From: Clostridia bacterium
Lineage (GTDB): Bacteria; Bacillota; Clostridia; UMGS1883; UMGS1540
Direction of reading: 5' to 3'
DNA length: 64,000 bases
NCBI GenBank assembly: GCA_045656005.1
Contig: JAZOQG010000003.1
Location: forward strand, 2,226 to 66,225
A program made the position numbers and the translations under genes. Position 1 is the first letter of the stretch. Every line of letters starts with the position of its first letter. Below the pieces are notes generated by a model. It saw only the letters and a program-made list of their open reading frames with translations. It ran no database searches and was not told where the DNA came from. Below are positions 7,381 through 46,468 of the stretch, piece after piece.

Positions 7381-7938
7381 ATGTTAAAAATACTTGAAAA
7401 GTATAAAGAAAAAATTATTTCCATTTCCATTTGCATAATGGTGCTTTTAATACTTGGCATGGTTTCTGCAAATTATTTAAATGAGACGGCAGACAGAAAA
7501 GAGTTGGAAGCGATGCTTTCGGAAAATGACAAAGCGGGAACAATAGAGGTTGAGGTCGGTGGTGAGGTTATAAACCCCGGAAGATACTCTCTTAAAGAAG
7601 GCTCCCGTGTGGGTGATGCCATTGAGGCGGCGGGAGGCTTTACGGAAAATGCAAACAGAAAAATAAACATTGCTTTTTTACTTAGAAATGGAGAAAAAGT
7701 AATTGTTGCGGACAGGGAAAGCGAGCCGAACTCAGGCATTGCATACAAGGTGAATTTAAACACGGCAACGAAATACGAACTTATGTCTATTGACGGCATA
7801 GGAGACAAAACGGCAGAAAGAATATTGGCGTACAGAGATAAAATGGGTGGTTTTTCTTCCCCACAGCAAATAATGGAAGTCAGGGGAATAGGTGAAAAGA
7901 TGTATGATGAAATAAAAAATATTATTGTGACAGAATAA
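7381..7938 (+). CDS. comEA: ComEA-family competence protein (SLBB + tandem helix-hairpin-helix)
   Basis: N-terminal TM segment. C-terminal NLNTATKYELMSIDGIGDKTAERILAYRDKMGGFSSPQQIMEVRGIGEKMYDEI is a HhH_3 domain. Confidence 0.75.
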   Translation: MLKILEKYKEKIISISICIMVLLILGMVSANYLNETADRKELEAMLSENDKAGTIEVEVGGEVINPGRYSLKEGSRVGDAIEAAGGFTENANRKINIAFLLRNGEKVIVADRESEPNSGIAYKVNLNTATKYELMSIDGIGDKTAERILAYRDKMGGFSSPQQIMEVRGIGEKMYDEIKNIIVTE

Positions 7939-29671: not shown

Positions 29672-30934
29672 TTATTTTTTTATTTTATCCCAATATTCTT
29701 TTGTTGCAGTTTCAATTTTATTAGTGCCATATTTATAGTATTTTTTATCTTTTATCTTATCGGGCAAATACTGTTGTTTTACATAGTGACCCGGAAATGC
29801 GTGAGGATATTTATACTCTGTTCCTCTGCCTATCTTTGCAGCACCGCTATAGTGAGCATCTTTAAGATGCTGAGGGATATCTCCGCATTCGCTTTTTCTC
29901 ACATCATCAAGTGCTGCCCATATAGCCTCAGCTGCTGAATTTGATTTCGGGGCTGTTGCAAGCAAAATTGTAGCCTCCGAAAGGGGCAACACGGCTTCTG
30001 GGAAGCCTACCTGAAAAGCACTGTCAACACATGCTTTAACAACGGAAATTGCAGTAGGGTGTGCAAGGCCTATATCCTCTGCTGCTATAACTACAAGACG
30101 GCGGCAGATAGAGATTAAATCTCCACCTTCGCAAAGCCTTGCAAGGTAATGGACTGCCGCATCAGGGTCACTCCCCCTGATGGACTTTTGAAAAGCACTT
30201 AAGATATCATAGTGGCTATCACCGTCACGGTCATAGCGAAAGGCTTTTTTGGAAGTACATCCTTCAAGGGTTTCTATTGTAATATTTATATTTCCGTCTT
30301 TATCCGAGAGGGTGCTTATTGCCGCAACTTCCAAAGTGCCGATTGCTTTTCTTACATCACCACCGCATGATGTTGCAATAAAAGAAAGAGCATCATCTGA
30401 AATTGAGAGGGGCATCCCGTCACTTTTTAAAATATCAATACTGCGGCGAAGCGCTTTTTCTATTTCTTCTGACGGAACTTCTTTAAATTCAAACACAGTT
30501 GAGCGTGACAAAATCGCATTATAAATATAGAAGTATGGATTTTCCGTTGTACTTGCAATCAAAGTTATTTTTCCGTTTTCGATAAACTCCAGAAGAGACT
30601 GTTGTTGTTTCTTATTAAAATTTTGTATCTCGTCAAGATAGAGCAAAACTCCATCCATTCCGTCAAATCCGTTAAGGTCTGAAATAATTGTTTTGATATC
30701 GGAAACCGATGCATTTGTTGCATTAAGTTTATAAAGTTTCTTCCCGCATTTTTTTGCCGCAATATTTGCAACCGTTGTCTTTCCTGTACCCGAAGGACCA
30801 TAGAAAATCATGTTAGGGATTGTTCCGCTTTCGATTATTTTTCTCAAAATACCAGTTTCGGACAACAGATGCTGTTGTCCGAAAACTTCTGATAAGCTTT
30901 GAGGCCTTATACGGTCTGCTAAAGGTTTGTTCAT
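29672..30934 (-). CDS. rarA: Replication-associated recombination protein A (RarA/MgsA AAA+ ATPase)
   Basis: LADRIRPQSLSEVFGQQHLL, Walker A GPSGTGKTT, 420 aa. Confidence 0.85.
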   Translation of the reverse strand: MNKPLADRIRPQSLSEVFGQQHLLSETGILRKIIESGTIPNMIFYGPSGTGKTTVANIAAKKCGKKLYKLNATNASVSDIKTIISDLNGFDGMDGVLLYLDEIQNFNKKQQQSLLEFIENGKITLIASTTENPYFYIYNAILSRSTVFEFKEVPSEEIEKALRRSIDILKSDGMPLSISDDALSFIATSCGGDVRKAIGTLEVAAISTLSDKDGNINITIETLEGCTSKKAFRYDRDGDSHYDILSAFQKSIRGSDPDAAVHYLARLCEGGDLISICRRLVVIAAEDIGLAHPTAISVVKACVDSAFQVGFPEAVLPLSEATILLATAPKSNSAAEAIWAALDDVRKSECGDIPQHLKDAHYSGAAKIGRGTEYKYPHAFPGHYVKQQYLPDKIKDKKYYKYGTNKIETATKEYWDKIKK

Positions 30935-30961: not shown

Positions 30962-31053
30962 ATTGGGGAATAGGGAAAAATGTTCAGAACGGACAAACTG
31001 AAACGAAGCTGTATATAGATACTGCGATGTTGAAGTTTGTTCGTAGCAAAAAG
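30962..31053 (+). repeat. Interspersed structured repeat, copy 1 (conserved 5' block ...CAGAACGGACAAACTGAA and 3' block GAAGTTTGTTCGTAGCAAAAAG)
   Basis: Near-identical to the reverse complement of 38691-38777. The termini can form a 10-bp stem (ACGGACAAAC / GUUUGUUCGU). Confidence 0.7.
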
Positions 31054-31180
31054 GCTTTAAATCTTAGAAAAATCGAACTTGGTGAGATTTTTCATCGAGG
31101 ATAGCACAACGATGGTTTTCTGCTATCAAAGTTTATCTTTTTCCAGCCTTTTTGCGGTCTGGACTTTTTTCTTCATTCCC

Positions 31181-32419
31181 TTATTTATACAAAGGATATT
31201 TTTCGCAAAGTGCTTTAACCCCTGCACGAACTTCGTCCGCTTTGTTTTCAAAATCAAATATTGTCATAGCAATAAGATGTGCAATTACTTCCATGTCTTC
31301 TTCTTTCATGCCGCGTGAAGTAACTGCGGGAGTACCGATTCTGATACCGCTTGTGATAAATGGGCTCTTTGTATCAAAAGGAATGGCATTTTTGTTACAT
31401 GTAATATTAACTTCATCCAAAAGTGCCTCAACCTCTTTACCTGTTTTGCCTGTGTCTGTAAGGTCAACGAGCATAAGATGGTTATCTGTTCCGCCTGAAA
31501 CAAGTTTTAAGCCTTCTTTAATAAATGCTTTTGCCAATGCATCAGCATTTTTAACAATCTGTTTCTGGTATTCTTTAAATTCATCAGAAAGTGCTTCTTT
31601 AAAGCAAACTGCTTTTGCGGCGATGATGTGCATTAAAGGTCCGCCCTGAATACCGGGGAATATAGCTTTATCAATAGCTTTTGCATGCTCTTCCTTACAA
31701 AGAATAAGACCACCACGCGGACCGCGGAGTGTTTTATGTGTTGTAGTTGTAACGAAGTCTGCATAAGGTACGGGATTTGGATGAAGACCTGCTGCAACAA
31801 GACCTGCAATATGTGCCATGTCAACGAGGAAGTATGCACCAACCTCTTTTGCAATTTCAGCAAACTTCTCAAAGTCGATTGTTCTTGAGTATGCACTTGC
31901 ACCTGCGAGGATAAGTTTTGGTTTATTTTCAATAGCAAGACGTCTGATTTCATCATAATCAATTTTGCCGTCTGCTTCGGAAACTCCGTAAGGAACAATA
32001 TTGAAGTATTTACCTGACATATTAACGGGGCTGCCGTGGCTTAAATGTCCGCCGTGTGCAAGGTTCATACTAAGCACTGTGTCGCCAGGGTTTAAAACTG
32101 CAAAAAATACTGCCATGTTAGCCTGTGCACCTGAGTGAGGCTGAACATTTGCATGGTCTGCACCAAAGATTTTGCAGGCTCTTTCGCGTGCCAAAGTTTC
32201 TACAACGTCTACATGTTCGCAACCGCCATAGTATCTTTTGCCGGGGTAACCCTCGGCATATTTGTTTGTAAGAGGTGTTCCCATAGCTTCCATAACCGCG
32301 GGACTTACAAAGTTTTCAGATGCAATAAGCTCAATTTTGTTCTGCTGACGTGAAAGCTCGTTTTCTATTGCAACTGCAACTTCGCTGTCAAACTTTTTGA
32401 TTTCATCAATATGTAACAA
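31181..32419 (-). CDS. glyA: Serine hydroxymethyltransferase
   Basis: 412 aa with an SHMT N-terminal signature ([39 protein letters not shown]) and the PLP-Lys region [14 protein letters not shown]. Confidence 0.9.
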
Positions 32420-33516: not shown

Positions 33517-33721
33517 AAATATCGTACCTTTCTTTCGCAGAGTATATTTTTATGACGATGTAAGTATATCATATAATTTTTGAATTGTGTGGATTTATCT
33601 CAAATTGTGATATAAATTCTTTGGCAATGAAAGATTGATAAATATTTGTATCTCTACGAGGTGTGACTTTCGGCAGTCAAAAGAAAATTTTATAAAAACG
33701 TCAGTTTGTGCGATTATCGGG

Positions 33722-33829
33722 GGCGAAGAAAAAATAGTGCAGAACGGACAAACTGAACCAAGCGGAGCTTGGGTTAGCCGAAGGCGTACTAAAGTACGTC
33801 GAGAGGTGAAGTTTGTTCGTAGCATAAAG
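33722..33829 (+). repeat. Interspersed structured repeat, copy 3 (same conserved ends, different and longer core carrying two internal hairpins)
   Basis: 5' gaagaaaaaatagtgCAGAACGGACAAACTGAA, core ccaagc-gga-gcttgg and cgtac-taaa-gtacg, 3' GAAGTTTGTTCGTAGCATAAAG. Confidence 0.65.
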
Positions 33830-33842
33830 CAATTAAAATAAA

Positions 33843-33871
33843 AACATTCGCCAGAAAGCGAATGTTTTCTT
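33843..33871. terminator. Bidirectional rho-independent terminator
   Basis: aaaaacattcgc-cagaaa-gcgaatgtttt. Confidence 0.6.
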
Positions 33872-33949
33872 TAAATGGAAATTATCAAATAGAAATGCAC
33901 ATATATTAGGTCATGTATTAGTATTTGCTTTATGCGGTCTGTACATTTT

Positions 33950-34489
33950 TTAAAGCCCATAATATGCCCTGCTGCCGCCTATATATTTAGGTCTTGTTTT
34001 TGCAAAGGTTGTATGTGCCTGACCGATTTTATTTATGGAAAGACGAAGGGGAACTGCAACATGACGAAGGTGCATGCCTATAAAAGTATCGCCAATGTCA
34101 ATACCTGCGTGTGCTTTTACAAATTCAACAACTACAGGGTCTTTAAATTTTTTGTAAGCACTTGTTCCTGCAGAGCCACCTGCTTTAGGTTGAGGAATAA
34201 CAGAAACTATTTCAAGGCCATATCTTTCTGCGGCCTCTCTTTCAATTACAATTGCACGGTTTAAATGCTCACAGCATCCTACTGCAAGATATATTCCGCT
34301 TTCTCCGATTGCACTAAGAGCACCATCTATCACTTCGTCACCAAGCTCAAACACCGAGCCTTTGCCTATTTTATTTCCGGCTATTTCGCTTGTGGAACAA
34401 CCCATTATGAGTATTTCCCCGCTTTTTATACCGGATTCTTTTATAAGTTCATTGAGTGCAAATTTTACTTCATTTTGTATATTGTTCAT
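33950..34489 (-). CDS. UPF0340/DUF436-family protein (YwlG-like)
   Basis: 179 aa carrying GEILIMGCSTSEIAG and VGCCEHLNRA motifs typical of the UPF0340 family. Confidence 0.55.
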   Translation of the reverse strand: MNNIQNEVKFALNELIKESGIKSGEILIMGCSTSEIAGNKIGKGSVFELGDEVIDGALSAIGESGIYLAVGCCEHLNRAIVIEREAAERYGLEIVSVIPQPKAGGSAGTSAYKKFKDPVVVEFVKAHAGIDIGDTFIGMHLRHVAVPLRLSINKIGQAHTTFAKTRPKYIGGSRAYYGL

Positions 34490-37444: not shown

Positions 37445-38554
37445 ATGGCAAGCTTAAGCTTAAAAGGAATTTACAAAAGATACTCTGGCGGAGTTACCGC
37501 TGTAAGTGATTTTAACCTTGAAATCGAAGACAAAGAATTTATAATATTCGTTGGTCCTTCCGGTTGTGGTAAATCAACAACACTTCGTATGATTGCAGGT
37601 CTTGAAGAAATTTCGGAAGGTGAACTTTACATCGACGACAAACTCGTAAACGACATGGCTCCAAAGGACAGAGATATTGCGATGGTTTTCCAGAACTACG
37701 CTCTCTATCCTCACATGACAGTTTTCGAAAACATGGCATTCGGACTTAAACTTCGTAAAACTCCAAAGGATGAAATTAAGAGAAGAGTTGAAGAAGCAGC
37801 TAAAATTTTGGATATCGACCACCTTCTTGACAGAAAGCCAAAGGCTCTCTCCGGTGGTCAGCGTCAGAGGGTTGCGCTCGGTCGTGCAATCGTTCGTGAA
37901 CCTAAGGTATTCCTTATGGACGAACCTTTATCAAACCTCGATGCTAAACTTCGTGTACAGATGAGAACAGAAATCGGTAAGCTTCACAAAAAGCTCCAGA
38001 CAACATTCATCTACGTAACACACGACCAGACAGAGGCTTTGACAATGGCTTCGCGTATCGTTGTTATGAAAGACGGTATCATTCAGCAGGTTGCAGCTCC
38101 TCAGGAACTTTATGATAATCCTTCAAACGTATTCGTTGCAGGCTTTATCGGTTCACCTCAGATGAACTTCATCGATGCTGACATCGTTGAAGAAGACGGC
38201 AAAATCAACCTTGTATTCGGAACTCAGAAGGTTACACTTCCTGAAGGCAAGGCTGCAAAACTTGACAAGGCTTACATCGGTCAGAAAGTTATACTCGGTA
38301 TTCGTCCTGAAGACCTTTATGATGACGAGGCTTATATCGCAGCAGCTCCTGATTGTGTAATTGATGCAGAAGTAACAATTACTGAAATGATGGGTGCTGA
38401 AACATATCTTTACATGGATGTTGAGGGTAAACAGTGCGTTGCAAGAGTTAACCCAAGAACAACAACAAAAGCAGGCGACAAGATTAAGCTCGCATTTGAT
38501 GGTAATAAAATCCACATCTTTGACAAAGATACTGAATACGCAGTACTTAACTAA
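37445..38554 (+). CDS. msmX: Sugar ABC transporter ATP-binding protein (MsmX/MalK-like)
   Basis: Walker A GPSGCGKST, signature LSGGQRQRVALGRAIV, and a C-terminal TOBE/MalK regulatory domain. Confidence 0.85.
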   Translation: MASLSLKGIYKRYSGGVTAVSDFNLEIEDKEFIIFVGPSGCGKSTTLRMIAGLEEISEGELYIDDKLVNDMAPKDRDIAMVFQNYALYPHMTVFENMAFGLKLRKTPKDEIKRRVEEAAKILDIDHLLDRKPKALSGGQRQRVALGRAIVREPKVFLMDEPLSNLDAKLRVQMRTEIGKLHKKLQTTFIYVTHDQTEALTMASRIVVMKDGIIQQVAAPQELYDNPSNVFVAGFIGSPQMNFIDADIVEEDGKINLVFGTQKVTLPEGKAAKLDKAYIGQKVILGIRPEDLYDDEAYIAAAPDCVIDAEVTITEMMGAETYLYMDVEGKQCVARVNPRTTTKAGDKIKLAFDGNKIHIFDKDTEYAVLN

Positions 38555-38653
38555 CATTAAAATCAAGCGGAAATGTAAAAAAGTCCAGACCGCAAAAAGC
38601 AAAATAAATTTATTAATTTTATTTGCGCATGATATTATTTATAGTGTATAGTG

Positions 38654-38681
38654 AAAACATCCGCATCAGCGGATGTTTTTC
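38654..38681. terminator. Bidirectional rho-independent terminator
   Basis: aaaacatccgc-atca-gcggatgttttt. Confidence 0.6.
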
Positions 38682-38690
38682 TTTTATATG

Positions 38691-38777
38691 CTTTTTGCTA
38701 CGAACAAACTTCAACATCGCAGTATCTATATACAGCTTCGTTTCAGTTTGTCCGTTCTGAAACATTTTTCCTATTCC
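38691..38777 (-). repeat. Interspersed structured repeat, copy 2 (reverse complement of copy 1, near-identical including the core)
   Basis: ctttttgctacgaacaaacttcaacatcgcagtatctatatacagcttcgtttcagtttgtccgttctgaa matches the rc of 30985-31053 almost exactly. Confidence 0.7.
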
Positions 38778-38783
38778 CTTTGT

Positions 38784-39239
38784 TTATATGATACTCTTCA
38801 TATATTCCAAAAGTGCAGTACATCCCTTCAGTACATCGTTATAAGTATCATCAAAATTTCCCGTGTACCATGGGTCTGCGATATTTCCGCCATCGGCAAA
38901 GTCGAGAAGGAGGGAAATTTTATCTTCTGCACTTTTTCCCAAAATGGAGTGCATATTTCGAAGGTTTGCGTTGTCCATACCGATAAAAAAGTCGTATTTA
39001 TCGGCATCTGAAGGCATTAATTTTTCAGAATATTTTCCTTTGCAGGAAATTCCGACTTCGGCAAGTTTTCTCGCTGTGCCGCGGTGTACGGGATTTCCTA
39101 TTTCTTCATAGCTTGTGGCTGAGGATTTTATCAGGAATTTGTCACCAAGTCCTGCCTTTTCCACCATATCACGAAAAACAAATTCAGCCATAGTAGAACG
39201 GCATATATTTCCGTGACACACGAACATTATTTTAATCAT
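38784..39239 (-). CDS. Low-molecular-weight protein-tyrosine phosphatase
   Basis: CX5R(S/T) P-loop CHGNICRS near the N-terminus (MIKIMFVCHGNICRSTMAE) and a C-terminal DP motif. The ORF track extension to 39290 is probably not translated. Confidence 0.75.
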   Translation of the reverse strand: MIKIMFVCHGNICRSTMAEFVFRDMVEKAGLGDKFLIKSSATSYEEIGNPVHRGTARKLAEVGISCKGKYSEKLMPSDADKYDFFIGMDNANLRNMHSILGKSAEDKISLLLDFADGGNIADPWYTGNFDDTYNDVLKGCTALLEYMKSII

Positions 39240-39407
39240 TTTTATCACCCAAATTATTATATCGCAATATAAAGTATTTGTAAATACCATAAAAGAAACA
39301 AACCCATATTTTTTATATATTTTTTAACATTATTTGGTTTTTTACTTGAAAACTAATTGGGAATATGCTATGATTTACATTGTACTTTTTATTGGGAGTG
39401 ACAAAAA

Positions 39408-42239: not shown

Positions 42240-42265
42240 AATTTTTGAAAGGAGCGAGTCAATCA

Positions 42266-42513
42266 TGGAAAAGGAAAAGAATGAAAGAACTTTCCGCGCA
42301 AGAAAGGCAAAGAAAAAAGTTTGTGCTTTCTGTGCAGATAAAGTTGAACATATCGATTACAAAGATGTTGCACGTCTTCGTCGCTATATTTCAGAAAGAG
42401 GAAAGATTTTACCTCGTCGTATAACAGGAACATGTGCAAAACATCAGCGTCAGTTGACACTCGAAATCAAAAGAGCTCGTCACATCGCACTTCTTCCTTA
42501 CTCATCTGAGTAG
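42266..42513 (+). CDS. rpsR: 30S ribosomal protein S18
   Basis: CAFC, IDYKDV...[18 protein letters not shown]...KHQRQL. Start ATG 42266 behind the RBS AAAGGAG. Confidence 0.9.
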
Positions 42514-42527
42514 GATTTAACTAATTC

Positions 42528-42570
42528 CAATGAAAAGCAGGGTGTAAAAAAGAGTTTTTTTACACCCTCT
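42528..42570 (+). terminator. Rho-independent terminator after rpsR
   Basis: ggtgtaaaaaa-gag-tttttttacacc. Confidence 0.6.
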
Positions 42571-42629
42571 TGTTTATTACGTTTCTTGCCCTTTGTGGTC
42601 TGGACTTTTTTACATTCCATTATGAGTTT

Positions 42630-46425: not shown

Positions 46426-46468
46426 AAATAAATCCCGCAATACGCGGGATTTATTTTTATTTATACTA

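Follow-up and report, generated by a model that had tools for sequence, protein, structure and literature searches.

A 64,000-nucleotide stretch of a Clostridia bacterium genome (hereafter the window) contains three full units and one right-arm remnant of an intergenic repeat that folds into a three-way junction, and further copies are found in more than 100 loci in at least 48 assemblies of uncultured gut and rumen Clostridia. The structure is under selection, and on one strand. The best explanation, to which we would give an even chance, is an uncatalogued family of 210-250-bp non-coding, non-autonomous mobile structured intergenic repeats that have been co-opted as terminator cassettes; in kind, the family resembles MITE, REPIN, ERIC, and bcr1 elements.

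If this explanation is correct, a clade of abundant uncultured gut and rumen Clostridia has dozens of unannotated structured elements per genome, and the element reshapes gene 3′ ends, supplying terminators and sometimes the stop and last codons, and splitting tight operon junctions. With its covariation, an invariant non-canonical helix that looks like a protein handle, its loop expansions, and its stop-codon polarity, it is a clean test case for research on RNA and mobile elements. There is a practical side as well: many copies lie at contig ends, and the repeats thus break metagenomic assemblies; they should be masked or modeled in annotation.

Copies in the Window

An earlier note on this DNA had described a segment of 70-90 nt behind glyA with an inverted, near-identical twin behind msmX. 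The twins are real: they make up an inverted repeat of 96 nt (30966-31061 with 38683-38778) with 93% complementarity, and by eye the two copies differ by only three 1-nt indels up to ...GTAGCAAAAAG. They also have the same orientation relative to their upstream genes, as had been proposed, copy 1 lying downstream of glyA and copy 2 downstream of the msmX/MalK-type ATPase gene. The 5′ block CAGAACGGACAAACTGAA and the 3′ block TGAAGTTTGTTCGTAGCA, both named earlier as conserved, occur exactly three times each within the window, so a third copy exists (Table 1); shuffled sequence gave approximately 0.1 matches to the blocks, and none of 100 shuffles reached three. The proposed length, however, was too short. 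A third conserved block, CTTTTTGCGGTCTGGACTTTTTT (in copy 3, GCTTTATGCGGTCTGTACATTTTTT), lies approximately 95 nt downstream of each copy, so the full unit measures 210-240 nt, and the block of approximately 90 nt is its left arm.

Copy 1 is placed between the glyA stop codon (TTA, 31181-31183 on the plus strand) and the start of mgsA/rarA (30934), antisense to both genes. Its stem P3 encloses 90 variable nucleotides that include a weak hairpin of A/U only at 31067-31093. Copy 2 begins 5 nt beyond the LMW phosphatase stop codon and extends at its right end to within approximately 15 nt of the msmX stop codon (38554). Copy 3 has the same blocks as copies 1 and 2 and a longer, different core, with both a P2a and a long P2b hairpin; the 3′ strand of its closing stem P1 contains the stop codon (33950-33952) and the last two codons of the convergent DUF436 gene. 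A search of the window with a covariance model of the P2 domain returned these three copies only. Behind rpsR, the solo right arm GCCCTTTGTGGTCTGGACTTTTTTACATTCC is a decayed fourth copy, and the small perfect hairpin at 42538-42569 is probably the rpsR terminator.

The core of the unit is 28-64 nt long in different copies and its length does not vary in multiples of three, so the unit is non-coding. A small open reading frame from an ATG or GTG in the P1 5′ strand was rejected as a candidate: neither its frame nor its length is conserved, and copies 1 and 2 would give products of 12 and 50 amino acids. A 13-bp perfect palindrome (30856-30884) that resembles the P2 stem and lies 80 nt from copy 1 was likewise set aside, being inside mgsA, where it encodes the conserved FGQQHLLSE motif.

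Table 1. Positions of the repeat units, their parts, and neighboring genes in the window, and of variant forms in family loci (designated L)
Feature	Position	Strand	Remarks
Copy 1, full unit, 216 nt	30965-31180	+	Fold -82.7 kcal/mol, z = -7.35; CM R1 65.5 bits
Copy 1, P1 5′ strand GGGGAATAGGGAAAAATGTTCAGA	30965-30988	+	Pairs with 31158-31180 (MFE fold)
Copy 1, P2 domain	30989-31045	+	Helix ACGGACAAACU/AGUUUGUUCGU, tandem G·A pairs, short-type P2b hairpin; core of the element of the earlier note
Copy 1, P3	31046-31155	+	GCAAAAAGGC (31046-31055) pairs with GCCTTTTTGC (31146-31155)
Copy 1, P1 3′ strand TCTGGACTTTTTTCTTCATTCCC	31158-31180	+	Directly abuts the stop codon of glyA
Copy 2, full unit, 210 nt	38569-38778	-	Fold -63.6 kcal/mol, z = -6.15; CM R1 65.5 bits
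Copy 2, inner hairpin GAAAACATCCGC-ATCA-GCGGATGTTTTT, then CTTTT	38653-38680	+	Intrinsic terminator by scan, on the msmX strand
Copy 3, full unit, ~240 nt	33719-33958	+	Fold -83.3 kcal/mol, z = -7.48; CM R1 90 bits
Copy 3, inner hairpin	33840-33869	-	Intrinsic terminator by scan, on the strand of the DUF436 gene
Solo right arm GCCCTTTGT-GG-TCTGGAC-TTTTTT-ACATTCC	42589-42619	+	Between rpsR and a tRNA gene (42630)
Small perfect hairpin CAGGGTGTAAAAAA-GAG-TTTTTTTACACCCTC	42538-42569	+	N5-TGT-A(n)...T(n)-ACA-N5′ class; behind rpsR (42265-42513)
Empty purC site, bidirectional terminator hairpin AAATCCCGC-AATAC-GCGGGATTT	46426-46468		Between the CAP/LysM gene and purC
MgsA/RarA	29672-30934	-	Pfam
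SHMT/glyA	31181-32419	-	Pfam
DUF436 gene	33950-34489	-	Pfam
MalK/MsmX-type ATPase	37445-38554	+	Pfam
LMW phosphatase	38784-39290	-	Pfam
Units of two subfamilies against the orthologous purC stop	L013 7141-7391; L053 2872-3111		
Head-to-tail arrays, 2-4-nt spacers	L016 6523-6885; L021 3287-3800; L074 2667-2970 (-); L098 3088-3572; L002 7658-8000		
Long forms	L003 (-); L023 3655-3900; L028; L046; L116; L044; L055; L012; L035		P2b loop replaced by 170-300 nt of extra hairpins
Small perfect hairpins near full units	L004 3424-3456; L022 666-700; L024 4426-4460; L033 7196-7225; L053 2828-2863; L071 3432-3463; L085 2665-2697; L086 286-315; L087 7590-7616		

A Conserved Three-Way Junction

All three copies in the window fold into one common closed three-way junction, with z-scores of -6.15 to -7.48 relative to shuffled sequences. 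The closing stem, P1, is segmented and approximately 24 nt long (GGGGAT..AAAAAA..GTTCAGA with TCTGGAC..TTTTTT..ATCCCC). P2 is composed, in order, of the helix ACGGACAAACU/AGUUUGUUCGU, tandem G·A pairs, an optional hairpin P2a, a CC/GG step, a CGAA/GAGA internal loop, and hairpin P2b; the helix, of 10-11 bp, is the inner pairing with one G·U that had been pointed out earlier, and it is seen in every minimum-free-energy fold. P3, a 10-bp stem that begins directly after ..CGTA, encloses 80-100 nt that cannot be aligned among copies and that open with a terminator-like hairpin. The P2 helix is nearly invariant and the CGAA/GAGA internal loop invariant, although the family sample was picked by an exact 18-mer and the apparent conservation of the P2 5′ strand is therefore inflated.

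The same junction was returned by RNAalifold from 20 full units, without input on our part, with 42 pairs, 20 of which show compensatory changes. Among 48 distinct P2 domains, 97.9% of cells are paired, a value matched by none of 500 shuffles and compared with 32-41% in slid controls, and nine pairs are changed on both sides. Divergent members retain P2 through compensatory changes (e.g., CAGAATGG.../...TTCATAG). For P1c and P3 together (73 distinct composites) the paired fraction is 95.1%, with double changes in all ten of the P3 pairs. There are 35 distinct P3 sequences among 85 units, whose pairs comprise 819 Watson-Crick, 10 G·U, 3 A·C, and 18 other combinations. Cognate strands pair more strongly than non-cognate strands, at -12.7 versus -6.3 kcal/mol for P3 and -15.4 versus -10.7 kcal/mol for the outer part of P1. 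Since P1 and P3 both covary freely, they need only pair.

Wobble pairs identify the folding strand. They are frequent and conserved on the strand that is the plus strand of copy 1, with G·U in P2 in 43 of 48 domains, and one P1c pair is UG in 35 sequences and GU in 30, forming a tandem 5′-UG-3′/3′-GU-5′ motif. In 86 of 90 units this strand is more stable than its complement, by a mean of 10.8 kcal/mol. Compensatory covariation together with strand-specific wobble pairs is what is expected of structured RNA in general, and it fits RNA and single-stranded DNA alike. C(GNA)G triloops predominate among the P2a loops (21-31 of 47); this motif is known for unusual stability in DNA mini-hairpins rather than in RNA. 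Several known RNA motifs were compared by eye and rejected; for the K-turn, the hammerhead, loop A of the hairpin ribozyme (AGAA/GUC), and the sarcin-ricin motif (CGAGAGG), either the necessary bulges or unpaired cores are absent or the bases fall in covarying helices.

Distribution and Variant Forms

The 18-mer scan of species-representative genomes yielded at least 116 stretches, and a covariance model of P2 found 106 copies in the first 100 loci. Among the matches listed, the hosts are all metagenome-assembled genomes of uncultured gut or rumen Clostridia, Oscillospiraceae, or Monoglobaceae, except for approximately 12 chance matches to the 18-mer in unrelated phyla, which lack the rest of the element. 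Single assemblies contain up to seven or more copies, counting the fetched blocks alone. The family thus bears out the earlier suggestion of a small structured interspersed repeat, its copies occurring in more than 100 loci of 48 assemblies between unrelated flanks.

Units also occur as head-to-tail arrays, as internally deleted copies, as right arms alone, and as long forms (Table 1). The long forms share a stem of the CCCCAAAAAG..CTTTTTGGGG type between a pyrimidine-rich and a purine-rich strand. In at least ten loci, a small hairpin of the form N5-TGT-A(n)-loop-T(n)-ACA-N5′ is located 2-17 nt to the left of a full unit, and its 3′ half is the outer right arm of the unit. These hairpins could be derivatives consisting of P1 only, precursors, or a preferred landing site.

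Position behind Stop Codons

Genes in the family loci were called with a crude ORF finder; on these calls, 74 of 82 units have a convergent gene on the 3′ side of the fold strand. The distance from P3 to the stop codon of this abutting gene is 13-48 nt, which usually puts the codon 0-4 nt from where P1 ends; P1 contains the stop codon in 12 of 70 cases, copy 3 among them. The fold strand is antisense to both neighbors in 31 of the 63 units for which both were called, and the intergenic regions comprise 24 of convergent, 31 of tandem antisense, 7 of tandem sense, and 1 of divergent type. Unit orientation tracks the abutting gene even where the majority of genes around it lie on the opposing strand, which argues against an explanation by replication strand.

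The inner hairpin begins approximately 10 nt after the 5′ strand of P3. The 9 nt before it on the fold strand contain on average 4.6 A, and the 9 nt after it 2.0 T, so that it is the better intrinsic terminator for the abutting gene. A terminator scan called the hairpins of copies 2 and 3 as intrinsic terminators on that gene's strand; the weak inner hairpin of copy 1 was not called. Terminators had earlier been described as canonical and distinct neighbors of the element, a view that has to be revised, as the hairpin sits within the unit, inside P3. Copy 1, between glyA and mgsA, leaves only 26-30 nt to the mgsA start codon, so read-through is probably needed there; some other units lie at what appear to be junctions within operons, and a terminator in such a place would uncouple the gene that follows. 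Neither the scan nor inspection by eye revealed a sigma-70 promoter inside the unit or at its left edge on either strand, and the upstream flanks of units are unrelated to one another and have no conserved promoter.

Proposed Mobility and Site Occupancy

Several observations suggest that the units have moved. Between copies with unrelated flanks, similarity runs through the whole unit (interior 72-91% identical, left arm 87-97%), and filled and empty versions of orthologous sites were found in three pairs of loci (L056/L088, L052/L099 with two sites, and L006/L014). The window itself provides a further case: its purC site holds a simple bidirectional terminator hairpin, whereas units of two subfamilies stand against the orthologous purC stop codon in two other species (L013 and L053), reflecting either repeated insertion at one spot or an old insertion later lost in the window. 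Copies 1 and 2 of the window share their arms and not their interiors, and the tandem pair in L074 has identical P3 and interior sequences with different P2 cores and is thus a mosaic; these two patterns point to mosaicism or gene conversion.

No consistent target-site duplication was found, the lengths of direct repeats being close to those in shuffled flanks; there is a slight excess of flanking 4-5-mers (6 observed vs. approximately 1.6 expected), and the comparisons of filled and empty sites are not clean. To the left of the unit, the flank is rich in T and terminates in (T)TAA. In approximately 0.9 Mb of family loci, neither a transposase nor any other recurrent partner gene was found near copies, nor any autonomous or longer element with a shared left end. 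An AraC-type regulator and a large secreted or surface protein recur by eye as neighbors, which we take to be unrelated to mobility. At orthologous sites, in a sample selected by the exact 18-mer, the arms are 90-99% conserved while the mostly coding flanks are 75-95% conserved, a difference more readily explained by a local function of each copy, or by gene conversion, than by pure selfishness.

In the mechanism that we propose, units spread, or once spread, by way of a trans-acting factor that would be encoded elsewhere. The factor would read the folded single strand, with P2 serving as the sequence-specific handle and P1 and P3 having only to pair. Copies that persist may do so because the inner hairpin terminates transcription of the abutting gene and shields it against convergent transcription. 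The two readings of the fold, as RNA and as single-stranded DNA, are in our view about equally likely. RNA is favored by the gene-linked orientation, the tandem UG/GU motif, the loop expansions, and the non-canonical loops, which are invariant; single-stranded DNA is favored by the promoterless unit, the antisense position of half of the copies relative to both neighbors, the terminator hairpins close upstream of some units, the C(GNA)G triloops of P2a, and the lack of target duplication.

Comparison with Known Elements

No catalogued family of RNAs or repeats was found to match the element. With Rfam 15 at the gathering threshold, only tRNAs were returned for the complete window and for 17 loci, among them long forms, and in E-value mode copies 1 and 3 gave only terminator-like noise (E >= 0.02), so the Rfam check recommended in the earlier note matched no family to the element. 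Plasmid and phage collections gave no match; one IMG/VR contig with the 18-mer, IMGVR_UViG_3300029860_000340 (L117), contains two copies (2774-2840 and 7464-7530) and is probably host DNA or a prophage region. A literature search by sequence did not find the element, and exact-protein look-ups of glyA and DUF436 for strain variants returned none on record.

The closest known system is bcr1 of the Bacillus cereus group (group A bcr), an interspersed intergenic non-coding repeat of approximately 155 bp, flanked by 5-bp direct repeats, whose cruciform-like fold is made of a closing stem and two independent stem-loops; its structure is preserved by compensatory changes, and its distribution over the genome differs from strain to strain (PMC3184786). 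Both are interspersed intergenic repeats of Firmicutes with a cruciform-like or junction fold held by compensatory changes. By description, the unit differs from bcr1 in its length (210-250 bp), in the lack of a detected duplication, in the terminator within one arm, in its stop-codon polarity, and in its hosts, which are uncultured Clostridia. ERIC/IRU and the Correia-type MITEs are imperfect intergenic palindromes of 100-160 bp that exist in long and short forms and fold as RNA when co-transcribed (PMC3184786). ERIC and Correia elements fold as a single hairpin and carry terminal inverted repeats and a TA duplication; in the unit no duplication was found, and the fold is a three-way junction whose inner helix is invariant in sequence.

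Of the general features of MITEs, the unit is small, non-coding, dispersed in multiple copies, and present or absent at orthologous sites. It also has terminal inverted repeats, the P1 strands GGGGATAGGAAAAAATG.. and ..TTTTTTTACATCCCC, which are imperfect, approximately 24 nt long, and covary between subfamilies rather than being fixed. No consistent target-site duplication was detected, and no parent insertion sequence sharing its ends turned up in the approximately 0.9 Mb of family loci. REPs and REPINs, which have a GTAG 5′ of the stem, are mobilized by RAYT, an IS200-like enzyme, of which group 1 occurs in Clostridia (PMC5581495). Like them, the unit is non-autonomous, forms hairpins, and is present in many copies at gene 3′ ends; REPs and REPINs rely on an enzyme with a single gene at another place in the genome. 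Most copies of the unit have a GTAG in front of P3 (...CGTAG-CAAAAAGGC), a match of only four bases. REPs, however, are GC-rich palindromes of approximately 35 nt and REPINs simple doublet hairpins of these in inverted orientation, quite unlike a 220-nt three-way junction, and no RAYT gene was seen in the window or in the fetched loci. The orientation of the unit is set by the abutting gene, unlike that of IS200/IS605-type single-strand transposons.

The pneumococcal SPRITE is a repeat that resembles a Rho-independent terminator and probably acts as one (PMC3184786). In the unit, by contrast with SPRITE and ordinary terminators, the terminator takes up only approximately 30 of 220 nt, and the rest is a conserved junction beyond it. 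In the attC sites of integrons, the strand that folds is antisense to the ORF; these sites touch or overlap its stop codon, and their paired bases are conserved near the foot, with a variable top. The unit is alike in folding antisense to the abutting ORF at its stop codon, and in being conserved near the junction and variable in its distal parts; it differs in that it is much larger, has an embedded terminator, and has no R and L core sites, nearby integrase, or cassette array. Four features set the family apart from all of those compared: the junction with its invariant helix, the enclosed terminator, the stop-codon polarity, and the structured loop expansions.

Competing Explanations

One possibility, which we would place on the unlikely side, is that the units are multicopy functional non-coding RNA genes or domains whose fold strand is transcribed, as an sRNA or as the 3′ UTR of the left gene, and whose dispersal is secondary; P2 might then bind a cellular protein or carry out catalysis. 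Covariation in five helices around invariant internal loops agrees with this, as do the conserved wobble pairs in P1c, the structured expansions of 170-300 nt in the P2b loop, such as occur in large RNAs, the excess conservation of the arms over coding flanks at orthologous sites, and an orientation tied to the gene and not to a proxy of replication. Yet such genes would have to be expressed without a conserved promoter from unrelated upstream flanks, often antisense to both neighbors (in the case of copy 1 starting 26-30 nt from the mgsA start) and, in at least ten loci, from just behind a terminator hairpin; the prevalence of GNA triloops also weighs against RNA, and the copy number, truncations, and presence/absence pattern are the behavior of a mobile repeat. 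A related and more doubtful proposal is that the junction is the working part of a new mobile structured nucleic acid, either an RNA, which might be protein-guiding, self-processing, or retro-mobile, or an attC-like folded single-stranded DNA site for an unrecognized recombinase. In either form, its targets would be the nucleotides directly following stop codons, and it would bring its own terminator, a mode of mobility and targeting that, to our knowledge, has not been described for bacterial repeats.

It is improbable that the units are folded single-strand recombination sites of the attC or HUH-target kind, in which the bottom strand behind genes would be read by a recombinase. By analogy with such sites, the antisense folding strand, the contact or overlap with the stop codon, the conserved pairing near the junction with variable distal parts, the absence of target duplication, and the predominance of GNA triloops agree with this, but on inspection the attC cores RYYYAAC and GTTRRRY are absent, no integrase or other recombinase lies nearby, the units far exceed attC in size and hold a terminator, and their flanks are housekeeping genes in conserved order (glyA, purC, msmX, rpsR) rather than cassette arrays. 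Also very improbable in our view is that the unit is no more than an elaborate terminator or, as suggested earlier, a cis-acting 3′-UTR element in the sense mRNA of glyA and msmX. The constant position of the unit just 3′ of a gene in fixed orientation would suit it, as would an inner hairpin that could plausibly terminate transcription of that gene. However, the strand that folds runs antisense to glyA and msmX, so that in the sense transcript the wobble pairs turn into A·C mismatches and the fold is weaker by the mean 10.8 kcal/mol given above; sense transcripts would reach the inner terminator and stop before P2, the most conserved part, and the 130 nt of conserved junction beyond the hairpin would be needless for a terminator. 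Of the earlier pair of readings, MITE/REP-like repeat or 3′-UTR element, the dispersed structured repeat therefore stands and the sense 3′-UTR element is unlikely. Chance similarity, or the local segmental duplication named beforehand as what would undo the repeat family, has almost no probability left: all three full copies do lie within 8 kb of one another, but their flanks are unrelated, none of the 100 shuffles gave three matches to the blocks, and 48 other assemblies together contain over 100 copies.
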